Shown: positions 7,944-56,137, numbered from the stretch's first letter. The stretch: 64,000 nt of DNA from an uncultured bacterium (GCA_964588695.1 CAZPQK010000004.1:85129-149128), one strand, 5' to 3'. Program-made: numbers and translations. The notes: generated from the letters alone by a model not told the origin.

Positions 7944-7984
7944 TTTTGCTGGCCACCACAACCAGTCCGGCGTAGATTCGAGCC

Positions 7985-19542: not shown

Positions 19543-19654
19543 TGCCGTCACCGACGTGCACCATGCGGTCAATTCGTGTTATGTTTTGTGCTTCGGATCT
19601 CTCCGGGCCGAACACTGACGTGCGGTTAGACTTACTACAATATTGGAGCAGGGA

Positions 19655-20131
19655 ATGGCGAAGAAGATCTTGATCGTAACCATGTTTGTGCTGAGCGCAT
19701 TTTTGGGTGGGGTATTGGTTGGACACGTTACCCAAAGTGCGCAAGCCGAACTTACCGAAGGCGGCGAAGAGCTAAGCGAGTACATGGGATTACTACAGCG
19801 ACACACACACAAGCTTGGCCTCGCGATTGCTGCAAAGAACAAAGGACTCGCAGAGTTTTACCTTCACGAAGTGGAAGAAACCAGCGCTGTAATTGTCGAG
19901 CGCTTTCCCGACTATGACGGGTTCAAGGTGGGCGCGCTGGCCAAGGCCATGATGGTGCCGTACGTTTTGACGTTGGATAAAGCGATCGACGGAGGAAACT
20001 GGTCGTCGGCTCGCACCGGTTTTACCAGTCTTGTTTCGTCATGCAACCAGTGCCATCAGGCAACCAAGCATTCCTACGTGGTCATAACGAACCCCGAGAC
20101 GAATCCCTTCAACCAACGGTTCGAGCCCTAA
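19655..20131 (+). CDS. class II cytochrome c (cytochrome c'/c556-like four-helix-bundle, C-terminal CxxCH)
   Basis: Signal peptide. Single heme-binding motif CNQCH near the C-terminus. GGAG RBS 7 nt before ATG 19655. Confidence 0.7.
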   Translation: MAKKILIVTMFVLSAFLGGVLVGHVTQSAQAELTEGGEELSEYMGLLQRHTHKLGLAIAAKNKGLAEFYLHEVEETSAVIVERFPDYDGFKVGALAKAMMVPYVLTLDKAIDGGNWSSARTGFTSLVSSCNQCHQATKHSYVVITNPETNPFNQRFEP

Positions 20132-29340: not shown

Positions 29341-30339
29341 ATGCGTACCTGGCTAGTCGCGCTAGCGACGCTTGTGGCCATCGGCCCGGCGACGGCTTCG
29401 GCCGATGTCGTGGTGCTGCAAGCGACGCAAGACAACACGCTTTATCAAACTCCGGCGGTTTCTGACCTTAGCAACGGCGCCGGCCAAAGCATCTTCTCCG
29501 GCCGTACCGGCCAACTCCAGGGTGCGATTCGTCGCGCGCTGGTACAGTTCGATATCGCGGGTAACTTGCCCGCGGGCGCAACGGTAAATAGCGTTACCCT
29601 TACGCTGAATCTAACCAAGACTGCGTTTACCCACGGCACCCAAACCGTAAACGTTCATCGGGTCACCACCGAATGGGGCGAGGGCAACTCTGTGGCGGTT
29701 AACCCGGGCACCGGACAGGAAGGCGGCGGCACGACACCAATTGCCCCCGACGCTACCTGGAATTTTGCCAAATTCAATACCGATAGTTGGACAACAGGCG
29801 GCGGCGACTTTGTTGGTGCGGTTAGCGCTAGTCAAACAGTTAGTTCGTTGGGCGCCTACACCTGGAGCGGAACCGGCATGGTGGCCGACGTGCAGGACAT
29901 GCTCGACAACGGAGGCAACTTCGGTTGGATCGTGCGCGGAAACGAAGTAGATGCCCGTAGTGCAGAGCAATGGGCATCTCGACAAAACGGTACTATGGGC
30001 ATGCGCCCGTCGCTGACGATCGACTTTACTCCGCCGGCGACCGCGGTGGTCAGTGCCCGTCAACCTTTCGTGCTGGCCCAGGCGGTTCCTAACCCGTTTA
30101 ACCCAACGACTACCATTGCCTTTGACCTGACGATCGCTGGCAACGTCGATGTTCGAATCTACGACACCCGCGGCGCACTTGTCCGCCAACTCGCCAGCGG
30201 TGCATTCCCCGCAGGACAAAGCCAGATTGTGTGGAACGGCACCAACGACGCGGGACGCGCGTTGGGATCTGGAGTCTACTTTGTTCGCGCGGTTTCGCTG
30301 GGAGTGGAACATACGCAGAAGATTGTGTTGATCAAGTAG
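29341..30339 (+). CDS. secreted protein with a DNRLRE-like N-domain and a TIGR04183-type C-terminal sorting domain
   Basis: Signal peptide. ATQDNTLYQ...TEWGEGNS...GWIVRGNEVD. C-terminal VPNPFNPTTTIAFDL...GVYFVRAV...LIK. Paralogous to the N-domain of 36339..37352. Confidence 0.55.
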   Translation: MRTWLVALATLVAIGPATASADVVVLQATQDNTLYQTPAVSDLSNGAGQSIFSGRTGQLQGAIRRALVQFDIAGNLPAGATVNSVTLTLNLTKTAFTHGTQTVNVHRVTTEWGEGNSVAVNPGTGQEGGGTTPIAPDATWNFAKFNTDSWTTGGGDFVGAVSASQTVSSLGAYTWSGTGMVADVQDMLDNGGNFGWIVRGNEVDARSAEQWASRQNGTMGMRPSLTIDFTPPATAVVSARQPFVLAQAVPNPFNPTTTIAFDLTIAGNVDVRIYDTRGALVRQLASGAFPAGQSQIVWNGTNDAGRALGSGVYFVRAVSLGVEHTQKIVLIK

Positions 30340-32644: not shown

Positions 32645-33694
32645 TTAAAGGTTGTAAAATGATTCCAAATAGTCAACTACCTCGTTGCGATCGTACTGTT
32701 TTGCCCAGTCAAGAGGAGTCGCTTGATAAAGTTCATCTTCAAATTCCAACGCGGCACCAGCTTCGGCCAGTGCGCGCACAACTTCGACATGCCCATAGCT
32801 GCACGCGGGATGCATGGGCGTGACCTTTGTTGCCCAATACGAAATCATCAGATTGGGGTCGGCGCCAGCCGCGAGTAAACTGCGTGCCGGTTCCAGCCAT
32901 CCGCGCTCCGCGCAGCAATGAAGCAGGCGATGATACGCCCCGCCCGGTTCCAGCTCGTGATCGGACAGCACAACCTTCCCGGTAGTAAACAATCGAGCGC
33001 TGGCATCAACCTCGGCGCCAAAGCCTGCCAACAGCTTTTCCATACCCGGAATCAGTTCCGCGCGAGCCGTTGCCAGTGGACTCAGCCCTAGCCAGTTTAT
33101 ACGGTTTATGTTCGCTCCGGCTTCCACCAACACTTGTACACCTTCTTCGAAGCCAATCGCGATGGCGTCGTGTAGCGGAAGCTGAAAGTGATTGAACTTT
33201 CCTTGCGTCTCCTCGGCAACCTCCGGACGCCGCGACAATAAATCGCGCAACGCATCGGCGCGCCTAAACCGAAGCGCCGCCAGCACGGTCCACTCGGCGC
33301 CCGCATCCAATAGCACCTGCGCCACTTCTTCATGGGGCCCATCCATAGACGCCCACCCCAGAGGCCCCCAGCCATGAACGTCGGCACGGTCGTTAACGTC
33401 GGCGCCTTTTGCGATGAGCAACCTGGCCACGTCCGCGTGCCCCAGACCCGCCGCCAGATGCAGCGGCGTCACGTTGTCGGCTTGCACAGCATGGTTGCGG
33501 GCGTCAATTCTGGCACCCGCGGAAATCAAGAGCGCGGCAATGTCGACGTGACCGCACATGGCTGCGACGTGGAGAGGAGTGCTTCCATCCCATTCGGTCG
33601 TTAACGACACCCACTTTGGGTTCTTGCGCAGCCCGTCGTCAACTTCGGCCAGGTTACCGTCATCGACGGCCTCAAAAAAAGTTTGTGGATCCAT
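32645..33694 (-). CDS. ankyrin-repeat protein
   Basis: At least eight consecutive ankyrin repeats (TPLHVAAMCGHVDIAALLISAGARIDARN, TPLHLAAGLGHADVARLLIAKGADVN...). Start taken at MDPQTFFEAV. Confidence 0.75.
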   Translation of the reverse strand: MDPQTFFEAVDDGNLAEVDDGLRKNPKWVSLTTEWDGSTPLHVAAMCGHVDIAALLISAGARIDARNHAVQADNVTPLHLAAGLGHADVARLLIAKGADVNDRADVHGWGPLGWASMDGPHEEVAQVLLDAGAEWTVLAALRFRRADALRDLLSRRPEVAEETQGKFNHFQLPLHDAIAIGFEEGVQVLVEAGANINRINWLGLSPLATARAELIPGMEKLLAGFGAEVDASARLFTTGKVVLSDHELEPGGAYHRLLHCCAERGWLEPARSLLAAGADPNLMISYWATKVTPMHPACSYGHVEVVRALAEAGAALEFEDELYQATPLDWAKQYDRNEVVDYLESFYNL

Positions 33695-33732
33695 GAGCCA
33701 AGTATAGCGGGTTCCAGACCGAACGATAAGAA

Positions 33733-35745
33733 CTAGCGCAGTGACCCGACCCGCACCTGCACGGCGAGTTTGAGGTCGAAGCTCGCGCCCATGGGGTGGT
33801 AGCGAACGGTTTCGTTGAGCAAGTTGTAGGCGAGAATATCGGTGGCGATACGGTTGCTCCACCACGTTAGCGACGCGGTGCCGTTAACGGTCGTGCTGGC
33901 AGGCACGGTGGAGTCATAACGGACCGGAAAACCGTCGACGAAACAGATTTCTCCATCGATCGGGTCATACTCGGGCCAGTGAGTCGCGCGCTGCCACTGG
34001 GCGTTGACCGACAGCGTTGCACGCCGGCTGGGACGGTAGGTTGTTTCCAGTCGCAAGCGTTTGCGGGGAAGCGGAGCCCACTGGCGATCGAAGGCGGCGT
34101 TGCCGTCGACAAGTTGCAGTGCGCTGAACCAACCGGAAAGCGTAATGAAGCTACCGATGTTACGCCGGAGGCTCACCGTTTGCACAAACGTGTTGCCTTG
34201 CGAATCGAGCGTCGTGACGCTGTCGACTGTTGCGATGCACACTTCGCGACCCTGGATAAACTCACCGGTGTATCCAAGATGCCGACTGTAGCAAGTTCCG
34301 TCGTGATTACGCCACGCGACTGCAAGCGTTGTATTGAACCCCAACCGCTCCGGCAACCGCCACTGTGCATTAAGGGCCGTGGTAGTCGACGGCGAAACAA
34401 GCCTGTTGGTCTCGTCCAACGCCGGGTTTCCCAAGATCGCCACCGAGCGGTTCACCCAGTACCAGATTCCTTGGGTTTCTGAGCTTGGGGTTTGCCGGTA
34501 CGACGCTCCAACTTCCAATCGATGTTCGCCGAGGCGCATGACAGCCACACCCCCGATGTCGCTCCCCGGTGAGTCGTCTAGCGTGCGACTGCGGCCATAC
34601 GCGGCGACGTAACCCCAGGACAGGTTAAACCGGGAACTAACCGCTAGTGATCGCTCGTAAAACTCGCGTTGCTCATCGGCATTTGCCAAGATGAACTGTT
34701 CGTCGGCTTCATAGTAATATGGAAAATTGGCGACGCCTCGCCCTTCTACTTCAAGCCGCAACCTCCCGATCTCGGTAGCAACGGCCAGTTCCGCAACGCC
34801 ACTAAGCTTTCGCCATTTCAGACCCGCGCCGTTCGACTCCTCCGCGTCTTCCACGTAGGTCCGGGAGACCTCGGTTCGGCCGCGAATATCGAGGTGCGAA
34901 TCGTGCGGCTTACGAAAATCCATTCCAAACCGAAGCTTCGAAGGATCCACGGCCCGCTCGACACCCGACGTTTCGATTGGAAGGTAAAGTTTGCGAGACT
35001 TTCCGTACCAGGCGTACAGCCCAAACACGCCTTCGGGAGAGTGATACCGACGATCGACAAACCAACCGATTTGTCGCATGCCCGGCCACTCGGGTTCGTA
35101 GCCGATGTCAAACAACCCGGTGTCATTGGGTTCGGCACTCAGTTGCATCCGCGTACGGTTTAATTGTGCGCCGTCGGTAAAGTAGTGGATCGCGTACTTA
35201 AGCCCAATCGTCGTACGCCATCGGTGAGACTGATTCCGAAACAAATAGCCCACGTCTGGTCCTTGTGCATCGACGTTGGGCGATGTCAGGCTGGTGTAGC
35301 GGTAGGGCCCGGGGTCACCGGTTTCGTTTCCAACCCACAACCGAAGGGCGCTGCCAAGCTGCTCGCGCGACGAAGCATATGTGTAGATACGAATTGTGGG
35401 ACGTCCAAAGCGATCGGGGTCGGCATCCGCCACGCGAACCATTCGAACCATGGAGATGTCGATGGGCAAGGCGTTAAGGGCGGTGCGATCAAACCAGCGC
35501 GCATCGACAAGCGCGTCGTCGACAAACACATCCAGCACATCCCGCCCCCACGGCGATACGCCCCAGGCGCTGGCTTGCCAGTTGAAACCATCCACTGTGT
35601 TCGCCGCGAACTGCGGGAACACATTTAGAATGTCGCCAATCCGCGTTACTCCGGCCGCCCTGAGTTGCGGCGCGGTATAGCTGGTAGTTAGCGCGTCGGT
35701 TGAGCCGGGCATAACCAGCAACAACAACACCAACAGTCGCCTCAT
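33733..35745 (-). CDS. TonB-dependent-receptor-like outer-membrane beta-barrel protein
   Basis: Signal peptide MRRLLVLLLLVMPGSTDA followed by a plug-like region (TSYTAPQLRAAGVTRIGDILNVFPQF). Long beta-rich body ending in an aromatic-rich C-terminus. The ATG overlaps the upstream stop (ATGA). Confidence 0.55.
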   Translation of the reverse strand: MRRLLVLLLLVMPGSTDALTTSYTAPQLRAAGVTRIGDILNVFPQFAANTVDGFNWQASAWGVSPWGRDVLDVFVDDALVDARWFDRTALNALPIDISMVRMVRVADADPDRFGRPTIRIYTYASSREQLGSALRLWVGNETGDPGPYRYTSLTSPNVDAQGPDVGYLFRNQSHRWRTTIGLKYAIHYFTDGAQLNRTRMQLSAEPNDTGLFDIGYEPEWPGMRQIGWFVDRRYHSPEGVFGLYAWYGKSRKLYLPIETSGVERAVDPSKLRFGMDFRKPHDSHLDIRGRTEVSRTYVEDAEESNGAGLKWRKLSGVAELAVATEIGRLRLEVEGRGVANFPYYYEADEQFILANADEQREFYERSLAVSSRFNLSWGYVAAYGRSRTLDDSPGSDIGGVAVMRLGEHRLEVGASYRQTPSSETQGIWYWVNRSVAILGNPALDETNRLVSPSTTTALNAQWRLPERLGFNTTLAVAWRNHDGTCYSRHLGYTGEFIQGREVCIATVDSVTTLDSQGNTFVQTVSLRRNIGSFITLSGWFSALQLVDGNAAFDRQWAPLPRKRLRLETTYRPSRRATLSVNAQWQRATHWPEYDPIDGEICFVDGFPVRYDSTVPASTTVNGTASLTWWSNRIATDILAYNLLNETVRYHPMGASFDLKLAVQVRVGSLR

Positions 35746-38222: not shown

Positions 38223-39694
38223 TGAAAACGTTGTTGCTTGCACTTGGTATCTGTCTGACTGCCGCCATGGTTGTGCACGCGCAAAGCGAACCTATTGTGG
38301 TCGGGTCAAAGAACTTCACCGAAGGCTACGTTCTTGCCGAGCTAGTTGCGCAAACTTTGGAAGCACATGGTATCCCGGTTGAACGGCGGTTCGGCCTGGG
38401 CGGAACGCTGGTTTGTTACGAAGCACTCACCACCGGTGAGATCGACGTTTACCCCGAATATTCCGGCACGTTGGAGCAAGCCATTCTAAAACTTCCGCGC
38501 TCGGTGGGCGTTGACTCGCTGCGCGTACTGCTTCGGAAAAGGCATCGACTGGACTTTGTGGCGTGGTTGGGATTCAACAACACATATGCCATCGCGCTAA
38601 AGTCCGACCTTGCTCGGAGTCGCGCATTGCGATCAATAAGCGATCTTGCCGGCCACCCGGACTTGCGCCTGGCGTTTAGTCACGAATTCAATCAGCGCGA
38701 GGATGGTTGGCCGGGGCTGAAACAACGGTACGCTTTGCCGCAGACACCGGCCGGAATCGAGCACGGGCTGGCTTACCAGGCCATCGAACAGAATAAGATT
38801 GATATCACCGACGTGTATTCGACCGACGGAGACATCGAAAAGTACGGCCTGGTAACGCTGGCTGACGACCGCAACTACTTTCCGCAGTACCTTGCCGGTG
38901 TAGCGATTCGCGCCGACCTGGCGCCGCGCGTGATCACCGCGTTGAATACTCTCGCGGGGAGTATCGACGAATCCACAATGATCGCGATGAACGCGGACGT
39001 CTTGCTCCGCGGAAAATCATTTGCTGAGGTGGCAAAGACTTTCCTGGCACAAACGCACAATGTCGAGACATCGGTCGCAAGCGAATCGCGCTGGCGGCAG
39101 CTCCGCCGTCGCACCATTCGCCACCTGTTGTTAACCGGTATCGCGTTGGCAATGTCCATTCTCATCGCGGTACCACTCGGCATCGTGGTCTATCGCGCGG
39201 GTAGGGGCGCGCAAGTAATCACGTATGTTGCGGGGGCAATGCAAACCATCCCGTCAATCGCGCTGCTCGCCTTCATGATCCCAATTTTGGGCATTGGCGT
39301 CGCGCCCGCAATTGCGGCGCTGTTCGTTTACGCGCTTCTCCCAATTTTGCGCAACACGACGACCGCGCTGCAAACCGTCGACCCAGTTGTACGGCGTGTT
39401 GCCGAGGGAATGGGACTGAGTGTGATTCAGCGTCTGCGCCATGTCGAGTTACCACTCGCGGCACCAACTATTCTGGCGGGGGTAAAGACCGCAGCTGTCA
39501 TTAACATTGGGACCGCTACGCTCGCGGCGTTTATTGGGGCCGGTGGTCTGGGAGAACCTATTGTGACCGGCCTGGCGCTTAACGATACCCGGCTGATTCT
39601 TGAGGGGGCGGTACCAGCGGCGGTACTAGCAATCGCGACCGAACTCTTGTTTGACGCCATCGAACGCGTAAGCATTCCGGCGCACTTGCGCTAG
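38222..39694 (+). CDS. fused ABC substrate-binding domain + permease (OpuAC/OpuBC-type glycine betaine/choline uptake)
   Basis: Signal peptide + OpuAC-family SBP (PIVVGSKNFTEGYVLAEL...). C-terminal TM permease domain with the EAA-like loop. Start overlaps the ATPase stop. Confidence 0.75.
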   Translation: MKTLLLALGICLTAAMVVHAQSEPIVVGSKNFTEGYVLAELVAQTLEAHGIPVERRFGLGGTLVCYEALTTGEIDVYPEYSGTLEQAILKLPRSVGVDSLRVLLRKRHRLDFVAWLGFNNTYAIALKSDLARSRALRSISDLAGHPDLRLAFSHEFNQREDGWPGLKQRYALPQTPAGIEHGLAYQAIEQNKIDITDVYSTDGDIEKYGLVTLADDRNYFPQYLAGVAIRADLAPRVITALNTLAGSIDESTMIAMNADVLLRGKSFAEVAKTFLAQTHNVETSVASESRWRQLRRRTIRHLLLTGIALAMSILIAVPLGIVVYRAGRGAQVITYVAGAMQTIPSIALLAFMIPILGIGVAPAIAALFVYALLPILRNTTTALQTVDPVVRRVAEGMGLSVIQRLRHVELPLAAPTILAGVKTAAVINIGTATLAAFIGAGGLGEPIVTGLALNDTRLILEGAVPAAVLAIATELLFDAIERVSIPAHLR

Positions 39695-39801
39695 CCGTGA
39701 TTGGCTTCCCGCCGGAGTCGCTTTTCTTTTCGAGCCAGCAACGCGACGTACACAATGAACGTTCCCCAAACAATTGCGTAGGCACTAAGTAACCAGGCCA
39801 T
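39691..39801 (-). CDS. ccmD: heme exporter protein D (CcmD), 36 aa, absent from the ORF track
   Basis: Manual translation gives MAWLLSAYAIVWGTFIVYVALLARKEKRLRREANHG, a single TM plus basic tail typical of CcmD. AGGAGG RBS 6 nt upstream. Lies directly downstream of ccmC. Confidence 0.7.
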   Translation of the reverse strand: MAWLLSAYAIVWGTFIVYVALLARKEKRLRREANHG

Positions 39802-39810
39802 ACTTTCCTC

Positions 39811-40503
39811 CTACTGCCCCTGGTCGAACCGAGACTGTTCGACTTGAATCTTAAGCCGACCTATGCGAGCGCGCCATCGAATCAACAATATCATCAACGC
39901 GCAGAAAGCAAAAAAACTTACGTACAACGTCGTCGCCATTCGCGGATCCAATCCCGATCCCTCGCCGCCCAGAATAACCGGCTGCGGATGCTGCGTGCGC
40001 CACCAGCGGATGGCAAAGTACACCAAAGGAACGTTCACGAAACCCAGAATTCCAACGACCGCCGACAATGTTGCCCGCTTTTCCGACTGATCGAGATAGT
40101 GACGCAACATCAGGTAACCCGCGTAGATTAACCACAGCACAAGGGTCAGGCTTAAGCGAGCATCCCAGGTCCACCACACGCCCCACACCGGCTTCGCCCA
40201 GATCGGCCCGGTGATTAGCACTAACGACGTGTAAATAACACCAACCTCGGCGGCCGCTTCCGCCCAGACATCGAACCCTTGCTTACGTGTTGCCAGGTAG
40301 AGAAAACTGCACAGGAATACAATAAAAAACCCCAGAAACGCGTTCCACGCGGTTGGCACGTGGTAGTAGAAAATCTTCTGAACGATTCCCATTTCGCGCT
40401 CAATCGGAGCGTAAGAAATAATCAGGTAGTGGGTTACCGCCATCAGCGCGATCGTAACCACGAGCAACGTGACGTCAGCGGGTGACATTCGTTTTGCGGA
40501 CAT
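39811..40503 (-). CDS. ccmC: heme exporter protein C (CcmC)
   Basis: WWD/tryptophan-rich motif WGVWWTWDARL and conserved His residues. Six TM helices. Confidence 0.9.
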   Translation of the reverse strand: MSAKRMSPADVTLLVVTIALMAVTHYLIISYAPIEREMGIVQKIFYYHVPTAWNAFLGFFIVFLCSFLYLATRKQGFDVWAEAAAEVGVIYTSLVLITGPIWAKPVWGVWWTWDARLSLTLVLWLIYAGYLMLRHYLDQSEKRATLSAVVGILGFVNVPLVYFAIRWWRTQHPQPVILGGEGSGLDPRMATTLYVSFFAFCALMILLIRWRARIGRLKIQVEQSRFDQGQ

Positions 40504-41168
40504 TATTCCTCCAGAACGTATCCGAAGATCAGAAACGACGTAACCAGACCGATCACATCATAAACAATCAACAACCGCCACCAAAAGGTGGCGTCGCTTG
40601 CGGCACCCGCGGCATCGGCGGTGGTTTGTACCGCCGCGATTAACGCTGGTAGCACGGCCGGCAAGAGCAGCACTGGTAGTAGCAGTTCCCGCATCCGCGT
40701 TTGAAACGCTACCGCCGCGAACACCGTTCCCACCGAAGAGAATGCCACCGCGCCCAACAAGAATGACGCCGCCAACTTCAGCCATCCGTCAACAAACGAC
40801 ACGTCAAAGAACACGACGAACAAAGGAAGTAAGAACAACTGTGCAAGCAGCATACTGACGACGCTGGCCGCAAACTTTCCCAAGAAAACTCCACCGCGAT
40901 CGACGGGCGCCATGACCAGACCGCGTGAACACCCGTTGGCAAGTTCAAGCGCCGAGCTTCGGTTAAGCGACAACGTTCCGCCAAATGCAAAGGCCACCCA
41001 GAAGAATGCTGGCGCAAGCCGTCGCGCGTCGGCGGTAGAGACATCCAATGTAAAGTTAAAGATGGTCAACACCATCGCGCAAAACACAAACGAACCGGCG
41101 AGCGCTTCTTTGGTACGCAGTTCGATGCGCAGGTCTTTCCACAACACTGCCCTGGCGGTGGACAACAC
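40503..41168 (-). CDS. ccmB: heme exporter protein B (CcmB)
   Basis: Six-TM ABC-2-type permease with CcmB-like N-terminus (LWKDLRIELRTKEAL). Lies between ccmA and ccmC. Confidence 0.85.
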   Translation of the reverse strand: MLSTARAVLWKDLRIELRTKEALAGSFVFCAMVLTIFNFTLDVSTADARRLAPAFFWVAFAFGGTLSLNRSSALELANGCSRGLVMAPVDRGGVFLGKFAASVVSMLLAQLFLLPLFVVFFDVSFVDGWLKLAASFLLGAVAFSSVGTVFAAVAFQTRMRELLLPVLLLPAVLPALIAAVQTTADAAGAASDATFWWRLLIVYDVIGLVTSFLIFGYVLEE

Positions 41169-41872
41169 TAGCGAATCTCCTCGCCGCGATACAGACGTCG
41201 CACTTCGGAAACAGCAACTCCGTCGGCGAACGCCCCGGCCACACTGCCTCGGTTCAACACCACTACGTGGTCGGCCATTTGCACGCCACGTTCCACCTGA
41301 TGGGTTGCAACAATGGCCGTCCCTCCGTCTGCCGTGTGCTCAACCAGAAGGCTCAACAAAACATCAATTGCAGATTCATCAAGACCGGAGAACGGTTCGT
41401 CGAGTAGCAATACTTTTGGTTGATGCAGCAGCGCGCGAGCGATACTTACTCGCTGTTTCATGCCGCGGCTAAGCGAACGAACCGGCTTGCTGGCGTGGTC
41501 AATCATTCCGACACGCGCAAGCAGCACCTCAATCTGGTTGGCGTCGCGGACGCGATACAACCGGGAGTAGAAGCGCAGGTTCTCGCGACCCGACAGATCA
41601 TCGTACAGAAGGCTATCGTGTCCCACATAACCAACCACCGCCCGGTCACTGTCGTCGCGCTTGCGAACGTCCAGCCCGGCGATGGTTACGGTGCCGGTAA
41701 AAGAGGCCGTTACGCCGGAGATTATGTTGAGGAGTGTGCTCTTGCCGGCACCGTTGGCGCCAAAGAGGACTGTGGTTTGTCCGGCCGAGGCCGTCAGCGA
41801 AACGTCGCGTAGGGCGGTTACCGGACCAAATCGCTTGCTAACGTTGTCGGCTTGAACCGTGGCTTGTGCCAA
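41168..41872 (-). CDS. ccmA: heme ABC exporter ATP-binding protein CcmA
   Basis: Walker A GANGAGKSTLL. Signature LSRGMKQRV. Walker B LLLDEPFSGLD. Confidence 0.85.
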   Translation of the reverse strand: MAQATVQADNVSKRFGPVTALRDVSLTASAGQTTVLFGANGAGKSTLLNIISGVTASFTGTVTIAGLDVRKRDDSDRAVVGYVGHDSLLYDDLSGRENLRFYSRLYRVRDANQIEVLLARVGMIDHASKPVRSLSRGMKQRVSIARALLHQPKVLLLDEPFSGLDESAIDVLLSLLVEHTADGGTAIVATHQVERGVQMADHVVVLNRGSVAGAFADGVAVSEVRRLYRGEEIR

Positions 41873-41886
41873 CGTCGCCCCCGAGA

Positions 41887-43143
41887 TTAGCGACCCGTTC
41901 CCGACGGATTCGTGCCGGTCGCTTCGTGGTTGGAACTGGTCGTTGTGTCGCCTGCGTCCGCCGAGCCCTCACCTCGGTTTGCCTCGGCGAGCTGTTGCAG
42001 CACCACCGCAAGTTGGGCCTTGGTATCGGCGCGTTGGGCACGATAGACGTCGTTACTAACCACGCCGGTGTCAGACAGGCTGTCGAGTGTGACCAGCCGA
42101 TTGAGCAATCGCTCGCGGTGCCTGGTTAGCGACGCCAACCGTTCGCTCGCCGGCGTCGGCGTTTTCACAACCATAAAAACAAAACCCAGAAGCACAAACA
42201 ACAACGCCGCCATCGCGATCAAAGACACGTTGTTTGACGGGTCGGGAATCAGCACCACACTGTGGCCTTCTCCGTGTTCGGTGCCCGGCGAAGCCGCCAG
42301 TTGCTTGCTTCCACCAGTAAATGTAACGGCGAACTCGGTGCCCGCCGCGATGTCACTAGCGGTGTGCCCAACCATACCGTGAGCGCCCTCCGCCTGTCCG
42401 AACATGTCCGTCGGCGCAAACTCCAACGCCATGTCGGGGTCAACCTGAAACACGGTTAGTTTCTTGATCGGGTATAGTGCAGTTTCGGTCAACGTAATGG
42501 CATCGCCGGTGTACGGAACCACGTACGAAATCCCAATACGCGTCATCCCCGGACGCAGCGGATAGTCGACGCGATAAACATTGGCTTGCTCGGTGGGAAT
42601 AGCCGACCGCTCAATGGGAACACCCAAGGATGAAACAAACACGCCAGTGACTTCTTCCATTTGCGCGGGCAAGTGAAAGCGAAAGTTTCCAGCCTCGCCG
42701 GCCACCGTGACCGGTGGCTCGGTTACGTTGATCACTTCGTGCACGCGCATTAGGACCAGGTGGTCGCCTTCGCGTCGCGCGCTGTATTGTGGAACCGAGA
42801 TTTCCAGCCCATCGGTCGATGTCGTTTGTTCGTAGATCGTAAGCGTAACGTCGACCTGTGGCTTCTGTTCGTAGCGCACCGGCGTTGTATAGGTAACGCC
42901 TTCGTAATCGACGCGGAGCAAGTAGATGGTGGTGGCTTCGCTCAGGCCCTCAACCGTAAAACGACCATCGACAATGTCGAACGTTTGCTCGGTCGCCATG
43001 CCGCCGGCAGGGTTCACCAACACGCCGGTCATTTGCGCTGGCACAACTCCGTTAGTGCCGTTTTCGACGGTCCCATCCAGGGTGTAGGCGCTCGCCGAGG
43101 CTGCGCTGAGCAGAAGGAATATCGCGATCAAAAAGCGGCGCAT
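41887..43143 (-). CDS. hypothetical bitopic protein encoded inside the ccm operon (periplasmic about 300 aa domain, C-terminal TM and coiled-coil tail)
   Basis: Signal peptide MRRFLIAIFLLLSAASASA. TM LIAMAALLFVLLGFVFMVV near the C-terminus. No CxxC or TPR motif seen. Position between ccmH-region and ccmA. Confidence 0.4.
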   Translation of the reverse strand: MRRFLIAIFLLLSAASASAYTLDGTVENGTNGVVPAQMTGVLVNPAGGMATEQTFDIVDGRFTVEGLSEATTIYLLRVDYEGVTYTTPVRYEQKPQVDVTLTIYEQTTSTDGLEISVPQYSARREGDHLVLMRVHEVINVTEPPVTVAGEAGNFRFHLPAQMEEVTGVFVSSLGVPIERSAIPTEQANVYRVDYPLRPGMTRIGISYVVPYTGDAITLTETALYPIKKLTVFQVDPDMALEFAPTDMFGQAEGAHGMVGHTASDIAAGTEFAVTFTGGSKQLAASPGTEHGEGHSVVLIPDPSNNVSLIAMAALLFVLLGFVFMVVKTPTPASERLASLTRHRERLLNRLVTLDSLSDTGVVSNDVYRAQRADTKAQLAVVLQQLAEANRGEGSADAGDTTTSSNHEATGTNPSGTGR

Positions 43144-43145
43144 GC

Positions 43146-43493
43146 CTAGCCTTTGCGGCGAGCCTTTACTTCGGCTTCGATGAGTTGTTCGATATCACGA
43201 CGCACTTCGGCGGCATCGATTTCGGAGGTTAGTTCGGCCGCTTCTGCCAGCAGACCGTTTCGTAGTTTTTGATGGTCTTCCACCGACAACTTGCCCAAGT
43301 CAAACTCGTTGTCCAGATCTCGAATATTGTCATAGACCAGATTCTTTTTCGACCGCAGATGAAACAAGGTCTTCTGGTCGCCCGATGCCAACGCGTCTTC
43401 CAGGTAGTACATGTCGCGATTGCTCGACATCAATGGGTACGCGACATAGGCAAGCGCTAGAGTCGAAAGTATTCCTACAACAATTAGTTCCAT
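43146..43493 (-). CDS. small single-TM coiled-coil protein in the ccm operon
   Basis: MELIVVGILSTLALAYVAYPLM TM followed by a charged helical tail. The ATG lies 1 nt after the ccmH stop. Confidence 0.4.
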   Translation of the reverse strand: MELIVVGILSTLALAYVAYPLMSSNRDMYYLEDALASGDQKTLFHLRSKKNLVYDNIRDLDNEFDLGKLSVEDHQKLRNGLLAEAAELTSEIDAAEVRRDIEQLIEAEVKARRKG

Positions 43494-43494
43494 A

Positions 43495-44004
43495 TTAATC
43501 CTCGCGTGCGGCCAACTCGGCTTCCAGCCGCTGGCGCATGCCATCATCTACCGCGTCGGCATCCGCGCCGGGAACAATTTCGACCGCTTTGCGTCTACGA
43601 ATGAAACTTCCCACGTAATACGCCACCAAAAAAACACCGACAATCAGTGCGAAGCCGGGCATCACCCACGCGGCCAGGTTAAACCCATCTACCGGCGGCG
43701 ACGATAAAATTACCTCTCCGTACTCCGCGACGAAACCCGCGATGATCGAATCGGCCGGCGCGCCCGCGATAATCTGCTTTTCGATTTCGCGGCGCAGTGG
43801 GATGGCGGACGGGCAGTTTTCATGGTTGCAAACGCGGAGAATCATCTGACAGCCGCATTGGCAAACCAGCGCGTCAGATATTTCGTTGAACAAAACTGCT
43901 TGCTCGCCTTCCAGCACCATCGACTTGGCCGACTGCGCGGAAGTTTCTGACGCCACCGTCGTCAGCGCGACAAGAACAGTAAATACAACTACAAACGTTC
44001 TCAC
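43495..44004 (-). CDS. ccmH: cytochrome c-type biogenesis protein CcmH-like (variant CxxC motif)
   Basis: Signal peptide VRTFVVVFTVLVALTTVA. LVCQCGCQM...CNHENC in place of the canonical LRCPVC. C-terminal TM. Proposed GTG start immediately after the ccmF stop. Confidence 0.5.
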   Translation of the reverse strand: MRTFVVVFTVLVALTTVASETSAQSAKSMVLEGEQAVLFNEISDALVCQCGCQMILRVCNHENCPSAIPLRREIEKQIIAGAPADSIIAGFVAEYGEVILSSPPVDGFNLAAWVMPGFALIVGVFLVAYYVGSFIRRRKAVEIVPGADADAVDDGMRQRLEAELAARED

Positions 44005-46031
44005 ACGCGCTCCGCTGTTTTTAGCAGTTGCTCGATGGTCTTTTCTTGCTTGCGGATTCGAGACTCGCGACGATTCGGAAGCACCGTAACAATGGTGCCA
44101 GCAGCCAGAACAATCCCGCCGATCCAAACCCACATCACCAGCGGGTTAATCCACACTTGAAAGATCCCTTTGCCGTCGTCTTCGTTGACGCCCGAGAAAA
44201 CCAGATAGACGTCTTCCTTTAACGTGTTATGAATGCGAACTTCGCTGGTGGTTTGCTCACTAGCGGGATAGAAACGCTTCTCGGGCGCCAGCGTAGTGAC
44301 TTCCTTGCCGTCACGCAACACCGCTACCGTGGCCATTAATCCCGCGTAATTGTTGGTTCCAGACTCTTCGATGCTATTGCAAACAAACTCGTAACCACCC
44401 ACGGTAAAGCGCTCTCCCGGGCTGGCTTCGCCCCATCCTTCGCTGGTAAACGCTTTACCCGTGAAGCCAACAATGAGCATGACAAAACCCAGATGGACAA
44501 TGTAGCCGCCGTATCGCCGCTTATTAATGGCGACGATGTTAAAGAGCGCAGTTGCGATGTTCTCGCTTGTGTTCTTAACCCGTGCCCGAATAGCACGCGT
44601 GTATTCCGAAAGCAGCGTTGCCGTGACAAAGCCGACCAGCGAAAAAGACACCAGCGCATAAAAGTCACGAATACCGCCGACCAGGCAACCCACCAGCGTT
44701 GCGATTCCTGTCAACGTTGGCCAGAAGAAAATCTTTGCCATACTGCTTAACGAAGTCTTGCGCCAGGCCAAAAGCGGACCGACGCCAGTAAGAAACAGCA
44801 TGAACAAGCCGATCGGAACATTAATCTTATTAAAGTAGGGCGCGCCGACAGTCACCTGGCGACCTTGAATCAACTCGGAGATAACCGGAAAGATTGTCCC
44901 CCACAGCACAGCGAAGCACGAAGCCAACAGGATCAAGTTCTGAAACAGAAAACTGGCTTCGCGCGATGCGTACGAATCGAGCTCATTGTCGCTGCGCAGG
45001 AATTTTAGACGCGTAAACAGCAAGTACAAACAAAACGCGCCCATCAGAGAAAGGAACACGACAAAGTACGTTCCAATCGAAGACTGCGCGAACGAGTGGA
45101 CCGACGACACGATTCCACTTCGAGTAAGAAACGTACCGAAGATGCTTAGTAGATAGGTGCTTAGAATCAGCACAACGTTCCACACTTTAAGCATGTTCTT
45201 GCGTTCCTGGACAATAACGCTGTGCAAGAACGCGGTACCGGTTAGCCAGGGAAGCAGCGAAGCATTCTCGACCGGATCCCACGCCCAGTAACCGCCCCAT
45301 CCCAACTCAACGTACGCCCACTTGCCGCCTAACAAAATTCCGGTTCCTAGAAACAGCCACGCCCACAACGTCCAACGCCGGGTAATCTTGATCCACGTGT
45401 TACCCAACTCGCGTGCCATAAGGGCCGCCATGCAAAACGAAAACGGCACGACGAAACCGATGTAACCCAGGTACAACATTGGCGGGTGAATTACCATGGC
45501 CGGGTGCTGTAGCAGTGGATTAAGTCCGCGCCCGTCCTGCGGTGCAAATGGTTGGGCCGCGTCACCGCTGCCAATTGCGAGAATCTCAAACGGGTTAGCC
45601 GCGAAGCGGTTAAGGATTAAAAAGAAGGCGGATGTAATACTGATAATCGCCAGCGTATAGGGCACTAGCTTTCCGGGCATTCGCCGGTTATAAAACGCAG
45701 TCAGCGCACCGTACAGCGTCAGGATCCACGACCAAAACAGAAGTGACCCCTTCTGGCCGCCCCACAACGCTGCCACCTTGTAGAACAACGGCAAATCGCG
45801 GTTGCTGTAGCTGGAAACATACTCGACCGAAAAGTCACTGCGAATGAGCAGAATAGAAAGCGCAACGGTCGCCAATGTGACGAACGCGAAAATCATGTAG
45901 ACGGAGTTGATTCCGCTTTTGACAAGTTCGCGGCGCCCGGTTCTGGCGCCGTAGAAAAGCGAAAAGATGGCGTAGACGGTAAACGCTAACGCCATCGTTA
46001 CAGACAGGTTACCGATGCTGGTAAATTGCAT
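44001..46031 (-). CDS. ccmF: cytochrome c-type biogenesis protein CcmF (heme lyase subunit)
   Basis: About 15 TM helices. WWD domain WAYVELGWGGYWAWDPVENASLLPWL. 676 aa. Confidence 0.9.
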   Translation of the reverse strand: MQFTSIGNLSVTMALAFTVYAIFSLFYGARTGRRELVKSGINSVYMIFAFVTLATVALSILLIRSDFSVEYVSSYSNRDLPLFYKVAALWGGQKGSLLFWSWILTLYGALTAFYNRRMPGKLVPYTLAIISITSAFFLILNRFAANPFEILAIGSGDAAQPFAPQDGRGLNPLLQHPAMVIHPPMLYLGYIGFVVPFSFCMAALMARELGNTWIKITRRWTLWAWLFLGTGILLGGKWAYVELGWGGYWAWDPVENASLLPWLTGTAFLHSVIVQERKNMLKVWNVVLILSTYLLSIFGTFLTRSGIVSSVHSFAQSSIGTYFVVFLSLMGAFCLYLLFTRLKFLRSDNELDSYASREASFLFQNLILLASCFAVLWGTIFPVISELIQGRQVTVGAPYFNKINVPIGLFMLFLTGVGPLLAWRKTSLSSMAKIFFWPTLTGIATLVGCLVGGIRDFYALVSFSLVGFVTATLLSEYTRAIRARVKNTSENIATALFNIVAINKRRYGGYIVHLGFVMLIVGFTGKAFTSEGWGEASPGERFTVGGYEFVCNSIEESGTNNYAGLMATVAVLRDGKEVTTLAPEKRFYPASEQTTSEVRIHNTLKEDVYLVFSGVNEDDGKGIFQVWINPLVMWVWIGGIVLAAGTIVTVLPNRRESRIRKQEKTIEQLLKTAERV

Positions 46032-46050
46032 TGCCTGGCCCTAGGAAAGC

Positions 46051-46476
46051 TTAATAGTCAGATGATTCGGCGGACTCGTATTCGGCTTCGTACTTGGACG
46101 CACACTTGGCTTGAATGTGGTCGGCTTCGAAGACACCGTCGGGACGACGGTACCCTTCAACCACCGCATCAACGCCATCTTTAAATGTGTCGGGAACCGG
46201 CCCCGACCCGGTGTAGTGAACTTTAAGTGAGTGACCGTCCTGCCCAAGTTCAAAGGTGACTTCGGTACCATCACGGACGATAGTGCCTTCGCGAACAAAA
46301 CCAGCAACCCGAAGCCGTTCCTGTTGAGAGGATGCGGGTAGCGCGTCAAACTCTTCGAGCGTGGTGTAGTACGCCTTGCCTTCCTGATAACCAGAAACGG
46401 CCAGGAATCCAAGCGCCGCAATTACGACGGCGATCCCAACTGTAAAACGAACTTTTTTGGCTGCCACGAATCTCAC
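46051..46476 (-). CDS. ccmE: cytochrome c-type biogenesis heme chaperone CcmE, CxxxY variant (Cys replaces the canonical heme-binding His)
   Basis: N-terminal TM anchor and OB-fold core (RVAGFVREGTI...FELGQDGHSLKVHYTGSGPVPDTFKDG). DHIQAKCASKYE aligns with E. coli LAKHDENY. GTG start with GAGGTGAG RBS. Confidence 0.8.
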   Translation of the reverse strand: MRFVAAKKVRFTVGIAVVIAALGFLAVSGYQEGKAYYTTLEEFDALPASSQQERLRVAGFVREGTIVRDGTEVTFELGQDGHSLKVHYTGSGPVPDTFKDGVDAVVEGYRRPDGVFEADHIQAKCASKYEAEYESAESSDY

Positions 46477-52519: not shown

Positions 52520-52666
52520 GAGTGCCTCCTCCTGCGGATGCTATCCGTGGATTGTGGATGTTGTGGGCAGGCCCGTGCTGGGTGTAGAAGTTGTGCAGGC
52601 CTCCCCAAGCCCCGTGTGAGCAGATACTGTGTAGCAGTGCCCTTTATTGAAAACTATATCGTTAAC

Positions 52667-55600
52667 ATGAAATGTCAAGAGGCCCCGACATATTTCACCG
52701 GTAACCACGCCACGTATCGACTCGGTACTCCCCTAGGTGCGGGCGGAGGTGCGACGGTTTTAGCCGCGACTAATGTTGCGACCAACGAACCCGTTGCGTT
52801 GAAACTCTTGAAGGCCGAAACCGCTCACAATCACCGTGCGGTGGAACGACTTCGACAGGAGTTTCGGCTGTTGTATCAGCTGGAACACCCAAACCTTCCA
52901 GCCGTGTATGACTTCGCGTACTCGCCCGACAAGAGACCTTTTATAGCGATGGAGTTTGTCGATGGAGAATCCATCGACATCACGCTGGCAAACCAGCGTG
53001 ACAACGTCTGGTTTGTTTTACACCGCTTGTGTGAAACACTTTCCTTTGTTCACAGCCAAGGGCTCCTGCACCTGGACATCAAGCCTCGCAATGTTCTTGC
53101 CAAAAGAACTGGCCCGCGTTTTACCCCGGTGTTGATTGACTTCGGAATGAGTCATACCGCAAAACGAAAAGCCGGTTATCTTCTTGGAAGTCCCGCGTAC
53201 ATGCCGCCGGAAATGATTCGCGGCGCGCAAAGGCTTTCGCGCGTGGCCGATTACTACGCGTTGGGAGTTTCGATTTATGAGCTGGTAGAAGGCCGGTTAC
53301 CGTACGAAGGACCACGTGCACATGTCATCGAGCAACATCTGCACGGGTACCCAGAGTTCTCTGCCTCCGACCATCTCGCCGTCGAGTTGCGAGACACGGT
53401 TTCCGGACTGATGAATCGCGACCCGGCCGTTCGAACCCGCACATTTGTCGATTTACGCCGCTATTTAGCTGCTCGCACAGCGTCGCTCGACAAGTTCGGA
53501 CGCGACTATGCTCGTAGCGCTTTGCAATCCATCGGCGCAATTGACAAGGACCACGCCTGGCCCGCCATCGTTGATTGGCTGGACGGATTGTCAAACCGTG
53601 TCGACAGTTTTGAGGGAGACGCGTTGGTTGTTCGCGGCCCACGAGGGTGTGGCAAGACCTTCATGCTGTCAGAAGCGCGGCGCGAGTGCTGGCTGCGGGG
53701 TCTCCCGACCGCGGAGATCTTTAAGGACGACCAGGACGTTTATCGGGCAAAGTTTCGCGGCCAAAATATCGACCTGAGCGACCTTAACGAAGCTTGCGAA
53801 AAAGACCCGATCGTCATCATCATTGACAACCTTGACGCACTACCCGTCGAGGACCGTCACAGACTGTACGCACAAATGGTTATGCCCAACGCCCGACTCG
53901 CCATGCTCGCATCCGCGCAAACGACGTGGACCAGCGATCGCGATTTCAGCGAACCCAGCCTATTGCTGCATCCGCCGACGACAGTCACTAAAACAGAGCT
54001 CGTCAAGGCCTTCTCTGGGGACAGTGACTCCAGCGAAACGATTCGCGCACGAATGGAGCAACTTCTGACTGGCGCAGACGCGTCAATGCGATCGCTGTTT
54101 GAAGCGCTGAGTCGGGCTGTCGACAACGATGCGCTACGATGGGAGGACGGTCAATGGATGGTGGCTCCCGACGCGCAATCACCTGCGGTACAAGAAACCA
54201 TCGATGAAGCTTTTTTTACCTACCAGTATGAACAACTTACCCCCATTCAACAGAATGGACTGGTTGCTGCCGCTTGCTCTCCCGCACCGCTAACCACCGA
54301 CTGGATGATGACCGGAGCAGATGCCGACCTGGGTTCAACCGAAGCCGCGATAGCGATTCTGTGTGAGCGCCGACTCCTTACCGAAACGCCAACCGCGTTT
54401 GCGCTGGCCACGGATGCGCTACGTCGACTGCTGTTGGCAACCCACGCCGCGCCAATCGTCGCCAAGCGCCTTCTGAATCGTCGCCTGGATGAAAGCCAGG
54501 ACGATCCAATTGCAATCGATCACCTGAGTCTGCTTCGGGCATTGGTCGGCGACCTGGAAGACTCATTGACGCTACGTATTGACTGGCTGCGTAAACGCGG
54601 CAAAGAGCTATCCGCAGCGGATCTTCGTCGCTGGTGCGACAGCGGCTTAGCCGTCATCGATCAACTCGAGCGCAGCGACCCCGCAGGCTTGCAACGCGCG
54701 TTTTGGAAACTCCGCCTGCAAAGAGAAAGTGAGCGAGGAAACGCGCGAGCAGTAATCGACATGGCGGATCGGTTTGGTTTAGAGGCGTGCAATAGCGATG
54801 CGGTCAAAGCGTGCTTAGCCGAGGCGTTTGCGTACGCGGGCGACTATCCCCGCGCGAACACTTTGCTTGCTGGACCGGAACAGGTTCCGTGCGGAACGGA
54901 CGCGCGCGTCATGCGTCTAATGGCGCTACGTTGGATTGCTAACCCATACTCGCCACGCGGCAATGAACTGTTGGCAAAAGCGCAGAAACTGGTTTCCCGG
55001 GCCAGTTCTCGGGTAGCGAGCATGGTTACCGTACGTTGCTCGCAACAGCTCACGCTCGAACAACTCGACGCAGAGATTCCCAAGCTTTACGACGCTGGCC
55101 ACTACGCGTTTTACGCGCAAGCGTTGGCTAGCAAGTCGACCAAGCTCATCCACGCCGCCGAACTGGACGCCGCCGACGCTACCATCGATGAACTCACGAC
55201 TGTCAGCCACCAGTACGAACTTCTGTCGCAGCTTGCCGACGCGCACATGGCAAAGTCCAGCGTGTCCTACGAGCGCGGCAACATTACCGGCGCAATGGAT
55301 TCGTTGGAACAAGCGCATCGCGAGGCGTTGGGTGCTGGTCAAACCTATCGCGCGCTTTTCTACCGTGCACGACTACCGATGCTGCTAAAACGCGCGTCGC
55401 GTTTTGGCACCGCAATAGCAACGGCGCGTGCGGCGCGTGCACAAGCCCACGCTTTGGACATGGAAAACATTGTTCATCGCCTGACTCTGGTGGAGTACGA
55501 ACTACTTAATGATCTCGAAGCTGCTGACACCAACGACGCTCGGCAGCGCGCGACGAAGCTACTTAGCAACACCAATTCTCCAGTGCTGCGAACCTGGTCG

Positions 55601-56137
55601 CTATTCGAGCTAAGTCGCGACTATGCGGCGCGGGGAAAACTTGACGACGCTCTGCGCGACGTGGCGGCGTCTATTGATGCCGCACGTGAGGCAGGATTAC
55701 TTGACGACGAAACCTTTGGGTGGCTGCATCAGGTCGAAATTCATCGGCTGCGGGGCGACGAGGATGCTGCTCGGGATAGTCTTGCGCAGGCCACGTCGTT
55801 AGCAAAGTCACTCGAATCCTCCGAACTGCGTCATCGACTTCGGGTCGCGCAGATTTCGCAGGATGCCCGCGATGGCCAGTTTGAACTCGACGACGTCCTG
55901 CAGTTTTCCGAAAACCTTCTGGAACTGGACAACCAATGGCCGGCGTTTGACCTTATTCCACGGCTCGCGGTGATCTTCGTCGACAACGGTCACGAACCAA
56001 TCGCCGAGCGGATTTTTGAGCCCTGGACGCAACTCGCGCGGATTGTTTTTAGCAACGTCGAAACCGAACTCGAACCCAGCCTCGCGCAGTTAACCACGGT
56101 GCAACAGGCCGCGATGACCCGCCTGCAAGCTACTTAA
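52667..56137 (+). CDS. Ser/Thr protein kinase fused to a STAND-type P-loop NTPase and long TPR/helical repeat region (1157 aa)
   Basis: Hanks kinase motifs (GAGGGATV, VALK, HLDIKPRNVL, DFG, SPAYMPPE). Downstream Walker A VVRGPRGCGKTFML and Walker B-like IVIIIDNLD. Long alpha-helical repeat C-terminus. Start set at ATG 52667. Confidence 0.75.
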   Translation: MKCQEAPTYFTGNHATYRLGTPLGAGGGATVLAATNVATNEPVALKLLKAETAHNHRAVERLRQEFRLLYQLEHPNLPAVYDFAYSPDKRPFIAMEFVDGESIDITLANQRDNVWFVLHRLCETLSFVHSQGLLHLDIKPRNVLAKRTGPRFTPVLIDFGMSHTAKRKAGYLLGSPAYMPPEMIRGAQRLSRVADYYALGVSIYELVEGRLPYEGPRAHVIEQHLHGYPEFSASDHLAVELRDTVSGLMNRDPAVRTRTFVDLRRYLAARTASLDKFGRDYARSALQSIGAIDKDHAWPAIVDWLDGLSNRVDSFEGDALVVRGPRGCGKTFMLSEARRECWLRGLPTAEIFKDDQDVYRAKFRGQNIDLSDLNEACEKDPIVIIIDNLDALPVEDRHRLYAQMVMPNARLAMLASAQTTWTSDRDFSEPSLLLHPPTTVTKTELVKAFSGDSDSSETIRARMEQLLTGADASMRSLFEALSRAVDNDALRWEDGQWMVAPDAQSPAVQETIDEAFFTYQYEQLTPIQQNGLVAAACSPAPLTTDWMMTGADADLGSTEAAIAILCERRLLTETPTAFALATDALRRLLLATHAAPIVAKRLLNRRLDESQDDPIAIDHLSLLRALVGDLEDSLTLRIDWLRKRGKELSAADLRRWCDSGLAVIDQLERSDPAGLQRAFWKLRLQRESERGNARAVIDMADRFGLEACNSDAVKACLAEAFAYAGDYPRANTLLAGPEQVPCGTDARVMRLMALRWIANPYSPRGNELLAKAQKLVSRASSRVASMVTVRCSQQLTLEQLDAEIPKLYDAGHYAFYAQALASKSTKLIHAAELDAADATIDELTTVSHQYELLSQLADAHMAKSSVSYERGNITGAMDSLEQAHREALGAGQTYRALFYRARLPMLLKRASRFGTAIATARAARAQAHALDMENIVHRLTLVEYELLNDLEAADTNDARQRATKLLSNTNSPVLRTWSLFELSRDYAARGKLDDALRDVAASIDAAREAGLLDDETFGWLHQVEIHRLRGDEDAARDSLAQATSLAKSLESSELRHRLRVAQISQDARDGQFELDDVLQFSENLLELDNQWPAFDLIPRLAVIFVDNGHEPIAERIFEPWTQLARIVFSNVETELEPSLAQLTTVQQAAMTRLQAT

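Follow-up and report, generated by a model that had tools for sequence, protein, structure and literature searches.

Canonical CcmI, an accessory of the System I pathway of cytochrome c maturation, combines a membrane/cytoplasmic part with a periplasmic tetratricopeptide-repeat (TPR) chaperone of apocytochromes and, together with CcmF and CcmH, forms the CcmFHI complex; both apocytochrome and apo-CcmE are reported as its binding partners (PMC3884852). The variant pathway with a Cys-type heme chaperone CcmE, known as System I*, was originally described from archaea and Desulfovibrio, without CcmH and CcmG (Allen, 2006; Goddard, 2010; both as cited in PMC3601427 and PMC9084895). A 2011 review counted CcmH in about one third of the bacteria with a Cys-type CcmE, gave CPSKY as the majority motif of such CcmE proteins, and stated that CcmI enhances maturation in System I* without being absolutely required (PMC3601427). 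Experiments showed that the archaeal system requires no more than CcmABCEF (PMC9084895). Here, we describe a nine-gene ccm operon in a 64,000-nucleotide stretch of DNA (hereafter the window) from an uncultured bacterium (GCA_964588695.1, CAZPQK010000004.1:85129-149128), in which two proteins of 115 and 418 residues, p115 and p418, are encoded between ccmH and ccmA. Judged from their sequence, these genes make up a working operon of System I*, carried by a host related to Krumholzibacteria, and operons of this type have p115 and p418 as obligate, conserved members. Our preferred reading, to which we assign a probability of about 55%, is that p115 and p418, neither of them a TPR protein, together replace CcmI at the CcmF/H heme lyase, with a five-cysteine CcmH as the thiol source.

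The operon occupies positions 39691-46476 on the minus strand. Its nine open reading frames (ORFs) abut or overlap one another, the overlaps being of 1-4 nt, in the order ccmE-F-H-p115-p418-A-B-C-D, and seven of them were named unambiguously by profile search against Pfam and NCBIfam:

46051-46476, minus strand: ccmE, Cys-type heme chaperone (PF03100, 83 bits, E 2e-23)
44001-46031, minus strand: ccmF, heme lyase core of 676 residues (PF16327 and PF01578)
43495-44004, minus strand: ccmH-like gene, 169 residues (PF03918, 59.5 bits)
43146-43493, minus strand: p115, 115 residues, no Pfam or NCBIfam match above cut-off
41887-43143, minus strand: p418, 418 residues, no Pfam or NCBIfam match by itself
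41168-41872, minus strand: ccmA, ABC ATPase (TIGR01189, 148.4 bits against a cut-off of 131.6)
40503-41168, minus strand: ccmB, ABC permease (PF03379, E 2e-31)
39811-40503, minus strand: ccmC, heme-handling WWD protein (PF01578, E 2e-31; TIGR01191, E 1e-43)
39691-39801, minus strand: ccmD, 36 residues, alternative CcmD family (TIGR04391, 24.1 bits against a cut-off of 24)

A first-pass annotation of the window had proposed that a complete System I operon is present, its CcmE being of the CxxxY type, and all nine ORFs were found where it had placed them, with the profile matches listed above. Two starts were refined, that of the ccmH-like gene to a GTG at 44004, overlapping the ccmF stop, and that of p115 to an ATG at 43493 with GAGGA in front; the exact sequences of both refined products (169 and 115 residues) are held in the public protein collection. 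CcmF aligns end to end with the solved CcmF of Thermus thermophilus (6ZMQ, E 4e-90), and its WWD motif, WGGYWAWDPVENAS, is intact in this alignment. In a scan of the operon for promoters and terminators, a single weak site resembling a promoter, at 46534-46506 upstream of ccmE, was no more than expected by chance.

The conservation of the p115-p418 pair was assessed by scanning one genome per species with a p418 profile, which gave 80 loci, or 81 together with a metagenomic contig (L001). The closest of them belong to Krumholzibacteriia, at 40% identity, and nearly all the others to Acidobacteriota (Bryobacterales, Terriglobia and others), with a few unclassified metagenome-assembled genomes (MAGs) in addition. 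In all 81 related loci, p418 lies within a ccm operon. With all nine window proteins mapped to these loci, the commonest order, ccmE-F-H-p115-p418-A-B-C, is found in 43 complete loci, and most of the remaining ones end at contig ends. p115 stands directly upstream of p418 in 75 of the 76 loci having enough upstream DNA, while the 2.6 kb past p418 contain ccmA in 67 of 74 loci and ccmE in 4 more (71/74). Four loci have ccmE relocated just downstream of p418, with the cluster still intact. The metagenomic contigs that carry p418 relatives show the same gene neighbours in the same order. Besides, one acidobacterial MAG (CAVWUV010000003.1, loci L069 and L070) holds two tandem whole copies of the variant operon (ccmE-F-H-p115-p418-A-B...C), about 10 kb apart. 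At another locus (L039, 7590-9014), p115 and p418 are read as one ORF of 475 residues containing a broken zinc ribbon, most probably because of a frameshift in a long-read MAG and not through genuine fusion.

The assignment to System I* comes from CcmE. In phmmer alignments, the window protein has a Cys at the position of E. coli His130 (KCASKY against KHDENY), QAKCASKYE matching the LAKHDENY of E. coli residue for residue (solved chains 8ce8_E and 1sr3_A), and the Tyr four residues past the Cys is retained. The same Cys also aligns with the TKC of the Cys-type CcmE of Desulfovibrio vulgaris (2KCT, chain 2kct_A). Owing to these alignments with solved CcmE chains, the central observation of the first-pass annotation, namely a Cys instead of the His at the heme-binding position, proved correct. 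The accompanying description of a rare variant of archaea and sulfate reducers was right in that the variant is a known one, published as System I*, but it is not rare in this lineage, where K-C-[AS]-S-K-Y was found in 63 of the 64 CcmE genes located beside related operons.

Compared with the described System I*, the window operon likewise contains no ccmG. Its CcmE motif is CASKY, whereas the majority motif is CPSKY, and it encodes a CcmH-fold protein with five cysteines, whereas the Desulfovibrio and archaeal systems are without CcmH. It also holds the p115-p418 pair, which the accounts of System I* in PMC3601427 and PMC9084895 do not mention. The hosts differ as well, being Krumholzibacteria and Acidobacteriota here, while the 2011 survey names delta-proteobacteria, Chloroflexi and Firmicutes. 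The 2006 criterion for System I*, the absence of CcmH, does not hold in this operon, in which a CcmH-fold gene is present; this absence is not a defining feature, because about one third of the bacteria with Cys-type CcmE have CcmH (PMC3601427). None of the papers in the library that we searched links ccm genes with Acidobacteria or Krumholzibacteria. The Cys-type CcmE system and the presence of CcmH in about one third of the bacteria using it are known already, whereas p115 and p418 as fixed members of the operon, the module that they have in common and the five-cysteine CcmH are new.

The CcmH-like protein, in which an odd cysteine motif had been noticed at first pass, has five cysteines in a CcmH fold, as confirmed by PF03918 and by alignment with CcmH of Pseudomonas aeruginosa (2HL7). 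In its AlphaFold2 (AF2) model, the signal peptide is followed by a periplasmic domain of three short helices, a single membrane helix and a short helix in the cytoplasm, and the periplasmic part superposes on 2HL7 and on the E. coli CcmH structure 2KW0 with target TM-scores of 0.69 and 0.67, respectively. The cysteines form the cluster CQCGCQMILRVCNHENC (LVCQCGCQ...CNHENC) in place of LRCxxC. In the sequence alignment with 2HL7, LVCQCGCQ falls over LRC-PKCQ and is followed by the two further cysteines of CNHENC; therefore, cysteines 1 and 3 stand where the canonical pair does, one residue further apart. Of the 121 closest homologues, which come from Krumholzibacteria and Latescibacteria MAGs and bear the plain annotation CcmH, 120 show the pattern CxCxC-x6-C-x4-C. 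The acidobacterial copies have five or six cysteines with a slightly different spacing, and the CcmH-like proteins of the related p418 loci are always multi-cysteine. The cysteine-bearing loop is modelled at low confidence, with a predicted local distance difference test (pLDDT) score of 53-76. Past the membrane helix, the tail of the protein (43495-43640) ends in a conserved helix in which D153, R159 and E163 are invariant (consensus DPxLRxRIExELK); this helix may offer a further cytoplasmic contact to the modules of p115 and p418 described below.

Instead of a thiol-disulfide relay, the five-cysteine cluster could constitute a structural or redox metal site, or an iron-sulfur site. The near-complete retention of the pattern together with an adjacent invariant His (CNH) in those 120 of 121 close homologues, and the persistence of a five- or six-cysteine version in the acidobacterial copies, would suit a metal site; so would the odd number of cysteines, which is unfit for simple disulfide pairing, and the low pLDDT of the loop, as expected if a cofactor were missing from the model. 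However, cysteines 1 and 3 match the redox pair of 2HL7 in the alignment apart from the one additional residue, the domain is periplasmic, a compartment where cysteine clusters usually form disulfides, and no metal-binding family of Pfam or NCBIfam was matched. We regard such a metal site as somewhat unlikely, and a thiol function of the cluster is assumed, as the more probable one, in what follows.

Turning to the pair itself, p115 has an N-terminal membrane helix followed by about 90 helical residues and a near-invariant motif, N-x-R-D-L-x2-E-x3-G-K-x-S-x2-D. Most of its acidobacterial orthologues end in a zinc ribbon (CPHCGA.F...KFCGECGK; e.g., L011, 7591-8001), and the copies of the window and of Krumholzibacteria have none. 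This ribbon places the C-terminus of p115 in the cytoplasm; it also contains the only cysteines found among the p115 proteins and is the reason why some relatives are misnamed Nob1 or NudC (some Joint Genome Institute names), the others being called "hypothetical" in public sources. p418 was modelled with AF2 from a 64-sequence alignment at a mean pLDDT of 89. In this model, a signal peptide precedes three periplasmic beta-sandwich domains (approximately residues 19-103, 113-221 and 226-277); the membrane helix spans residues 302-327, with positive charges behind it, and residues 332-394 form a helical hairpin on the cytoplasmic side. In 26 of 64 relatives, the first of the three domains resembles CarboxypepD_reg, and longer relatives have extra CarboxypepD_reg domains only, with no informative fusion among them. 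The family alignment shows no conserved Cys or His, nor any Met suggesting contact with heme. Pfam gave no TPR match in p418 or its relatives, and the modelled periplasmic part is all beta-strand. Likewise, the p418 profile retrieved nothing meaningful from the PDB sequences, and the fold matches obtained with Foldseek are generic beta-sandwich arrays. Because a word-indexed homologue search returned only 5 proteins, an exhaustive profile search was used to size the p418 family, which amounts to 4004 representatives at 50% identity with E <= 1e-3, and 301 with E <= 1e-30. The corresponding p115 search gave at least 7999 clusters at 90% identity, among 8000 candidates scored.

Despite their different sizes, the two proteins have a module in common: the C-terminal part of p418 is homologous to p115 (hhalign probability 96.9%, E 1.4e-10, 59 columns), the module consisting of a membrane helix and a helical segment on the cytoplasmic side. 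The N-terminal domain of CcmI (TIGR03142) was the only NCBIfam model matched by all 16 of the p115 relatives searched, and it was matched by 18 of 64 p418 relatives, more than any other NCBIfam family. The alignment spans the membrane helix and the next helix, from profile position 4 to positions 69-86 of 118. The "CcmI-N-like" character of the module is accordingly a consistent but weak signal, and not membership of the family. In CcmI itself, a cytoplasmic leucine-zipper-like motif is present in R. capsulatus and not in P. aeruginosa (PMC3884852). The first-pass annotation had counted p115 and p418 as two unassigned members of the operon; two extra members do exist, but they are not entirely unassignable, given the common module and the sub-threshold TIGR03142 matches. 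When both ORFs were checked for canonical CcmG or CcmI domains, the CcmI signal remained below the curated cut-off and no TPR was found.

The same annotation had reported neither CcmG nor a TPR-type CcmI in the window, and all the searches made for them in the window, by motif, with CcmG and with Pfam, came back empty. No [WFY]CxxC motif occurs in any window ORF of 90 residues or more, E. coli CcmG has no match among the six-frame ORFs of the window (best E 0.64), and Pfam scans of 40 other window ORFs (0.2 to 61.6 kb) revealed no thioredoxin, DsbD/CcdA or CcmI family. Similarly, no thioredoxin-type ORF or CcmG was found near any of the 80 related operons. The window does encode two TPR proteins, 20-35 kb from the operon (7985-8626 and 21118-22992); they were considered as distant CcmI candidates and rejected, their context being unrelated and their matches including none specific to CcmI.

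Set against the canonical CcmFHI systems of R. capsulatus, P. aeruginosa and E. coli, the window operon keeps the same arrangement, that is, CcmF and a CcmH-fold protein followed by membrane-anchored accessories, and the module of p115 and p418 is weakly like the N-terminal domain of CcmI, below the cut-off. In contrast to these systems, no TPR is present and the role would be split over two proteins with a single membrane helix each, the periplasmic domain of p418 is a triple beta-sandwich N-terminal to its membrane helix, the CcmH motif is CxCxC...C....C where the canonical one is LRCxxC, and CcmG is missing from the operon. The NrfEFG system offers another comparison, CcmF and the CcmH-like protein also scoring on the NrfE and NrfF models. 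These scores are far below the cut-offs, however, neither nrfA nor a TPR-type NrfG lies nearby, and the operon has the general ccmABCDE set.

From these comparisons, the pathway can be outlined as follows. As homology shows, CcmABCD load heme onto CcmE, which holds it through the Cys of its CxxxY motif, and CcmF with its CcmH-fold partner attaches the heme to apocytochromes. p115 and p418 could pair through their paralogous membrane/cytoplasmic modules and dock on CcmF/CcmH, where they would occupy the place of CcmI in the canonical CcmFHI complex. The beta-sandwich array of p418 would then replace the TPR domain as the platform holding the unfolded apocytochrome, and possibly CcmE. The five-cysteine CcmH, as the sole thiol chemistry encoded in the operon, probably keeps the cysteines of the apocytochrome CxxCH motifs reduced, and its cysteines perhaps form an extended relay that would be supplied by a reductant transporter with its gene in another part of the genome.

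Several observations weigh against a CcmI-like role of the pair. All the TIGR03142 matches are below the cut-off, the best relative reaching 24.2 bits (E 3.3e-5) for a threshold of 29.3; the window p115 itself scores 12.9 bits (E 0.1) and the C-terminus of the window p418 gives no match. The motif of the module also matches helical families of the GvpG and SHOCT types at similar levels, and therefore the module may be a generic oligomerisation motif. Besides, the p115 and p418 C-terminal profiles show no similarity to E. coli CcmH, whose C-terminal half is CcmI-like (hhalign probability <= 0.2%), so that the link to CcmI comes solely from the sub-threshold TIGR03142 matches. The topology differs too: p115 and p418 have one membrane helix each, whereas CcmI has two flanking a cytoplasmic loop, and the periplasmic domain is N-terminal to the membrane helix in p418 and C-terminal in CcmI. 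As for function, p418 shows no conservation of Cys, His or Met, its structural matches are of a generic type and its binding role is a putative one, and the System I* of Desulfovibrio and archaea works without p115 and p418 (PMC3601427, PMC9084895). Finally, the searches for CcmG and CcmI covered the window, and a TPR-type CcmI or CcmG/CcdA may be encoded elsewhere in the genome.

The same operon architecture could also suit a different substrate. p115 and p418 might bridge or regulate the two halves of the pathway, aiding the release of Cys-linked holo-CcmE from CcmABCD or its hand-over to CcmF; they would then be tuned to the thioether-type bond between CcmE and heme, and apocytochrome would not be their substrate. 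Indeed, the pair is placed precisely where the ccmFH block ends and the ccmABCD block begins, a Cys-type CcmE accompanies it in 63 of 64 loci, ccmE immediately follows p418 in four loci, and even canonical CcmI is reported to bind apo-CcmE (PMC3884852). Nothing directly separates this possibility from that of an apocytochrome chaperone. The Cys-type systems of Desulfovibrio and archaea function without the pair, however, and p418 contains no conserved residue of the heme-ligand type. Handling of holo-CcmE by p115 and p418 appears unlikely, and we keep the CcmI substitute on CcmF/H as the preferred reading.

A more far-reaching proposal arises from the overall shape of p418. Its top Foldseek matches in the PDB were RPN1/Ost1 of the oligosaccharyltransferase (OST), with an E of 7e-8 over about 390-470 aligned columns, although the TM-scores were only 0.22-0.29 and the root-mean-square deviation exceeded 26 Å. 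In the AF2 model, the layout of p418 resembles that of ribophorin I/OST1, with extracytoplasmic beta-sandwiches, one membrane helix and a cytoplasmic helical domain. The second-best PDB match of the p115 profile was 8WHN, the cytoplasmic domain of an Asgard OST1 (E 0.094); the 8WHN fragment scored 14.2 bits on the p115 profile, a value reached by none of 2000 shuffles, and 8.7 bits on the p418 C-terminal profile, which 4 of 2000 shuffles reached. No ribophorin chain was retrieved by the p418 profile from the PDB sequences, and Pfam scans of p418 (at E <= 0.1) and of its relatives gave no match to Ribophorin_I. Reports of OST1 are confined to eukaryotes and to the TACK and Asgard archaea (PMC11417166). 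A real kinship of the p418 family with ribophorin I/OST1 is quite improbable on these data. Under such a reading, p418 would be a bacterial accessory subunit that presents unfolded secreted polypeptides to a modifying enzyme in the membrane, CcmF/H in place of OST, and a third self-contained subtype of System I would be defined by p418, p115 and the five-cysteine CcmH. This subtype would then be common throughout Acidobacteriota and independent of both CcmG and a TPR-type CcmI. The resemblance between p418 and OST1 may instead be a convergence on a common architecture.

The absence of any curated family giving p115 or p418 a function, and the generic beta-sandwich array of p418, could be taken to mean that both are unrelated envelope passengers with no role in cytochrome c maturation. 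This is very unlikely because synteny is kept: the genes abut or overlap inside the operon between ccmH and ccmA, and their adjacency in 75 of 76 loci extends over two phyla and survives the rearrangement of ccmE. The similarity of their module to CcmI, sub-threshold but consistent, also speaks against mere passengers. The first-pass annotation had suggested an apocytochrome-handling or a thiol-redox function for the two proteins, of which the former, or a scaffold function, is plausible. The latter, by which p418 and/or p115 would supply the CcmG-like activity missing from the window and from beside all 80 related operons, is rejected because neither protein has conserved cysteines (p418 has no conserved Cys or His, and those of p115 are confined to the zinc ribbon, absent from the window copy), nor does either show a thioredoxin fold.

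Acidobacteriota are among the most abundant soil bacteria and have many c-type cytochromes, and the exact jobs of CcmH and CcmI are a long-standing question in System I. The operon type described here links cytochrome c maturation in this major soil phylum with two large protein families that have no annotation. It provides a natural comparative test of which features of the pathway are essential, with a beta-sandwich for the TPR chaperone, a five-cysteine CcmH and no CcmG in the operon. For annotators, p115 and p418 represent two new family definitions.

Other features of the window deserve mention. The only CxxCH motif of the window is found at residue 134 of a 162-residue ORF without Pfam match (19643-20131, plus strand); this ORF could encode a small c-type cytochrome that has escaped recognition, unless the motif is a chance occurrence. 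Two proteins encoded at 17876-19486 and 29341-30339 (both plus strand) have FlgD_ig and Por_Secre_tail C-termini, the latter being the sorting domain of type IX secretion; such C-termini agree with a host from the FCB group, and the nearest relatives, being Krumholzibacteria-like, do so too. One of the two TPR proteins mentioned above (624 residues, 21118-22992) belongs to a cluster at 20132-24029 (minus strand) with a polysaccharide deacetylase and a family-2 glycosyltransferase, resembling a Pga-type exopolysaccharide cluster. The other (213 residues, 7985-8626) directly follows a Ku homologue (PF02735, E 2e-45), both lying within 7035-8626 on the plus strand. An ORF of 333 residues with five CxxC motifs (24512-25513, minus strand) carries a LIM domain (PF00412, E 1.5e-9) together with a DA1-like peptidase domain (PF12315, E 7e-11), a eukaryote-type pairing on a bacterial contig. 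Finally, the window encodes a 406-residue ankyrin-repeat protein (32645-33865, minus strand) and a 1199-residue Ser/Thr protein kinase (52538-56137, plus strand), the C-terminal ~900 residues of which are unannotated.

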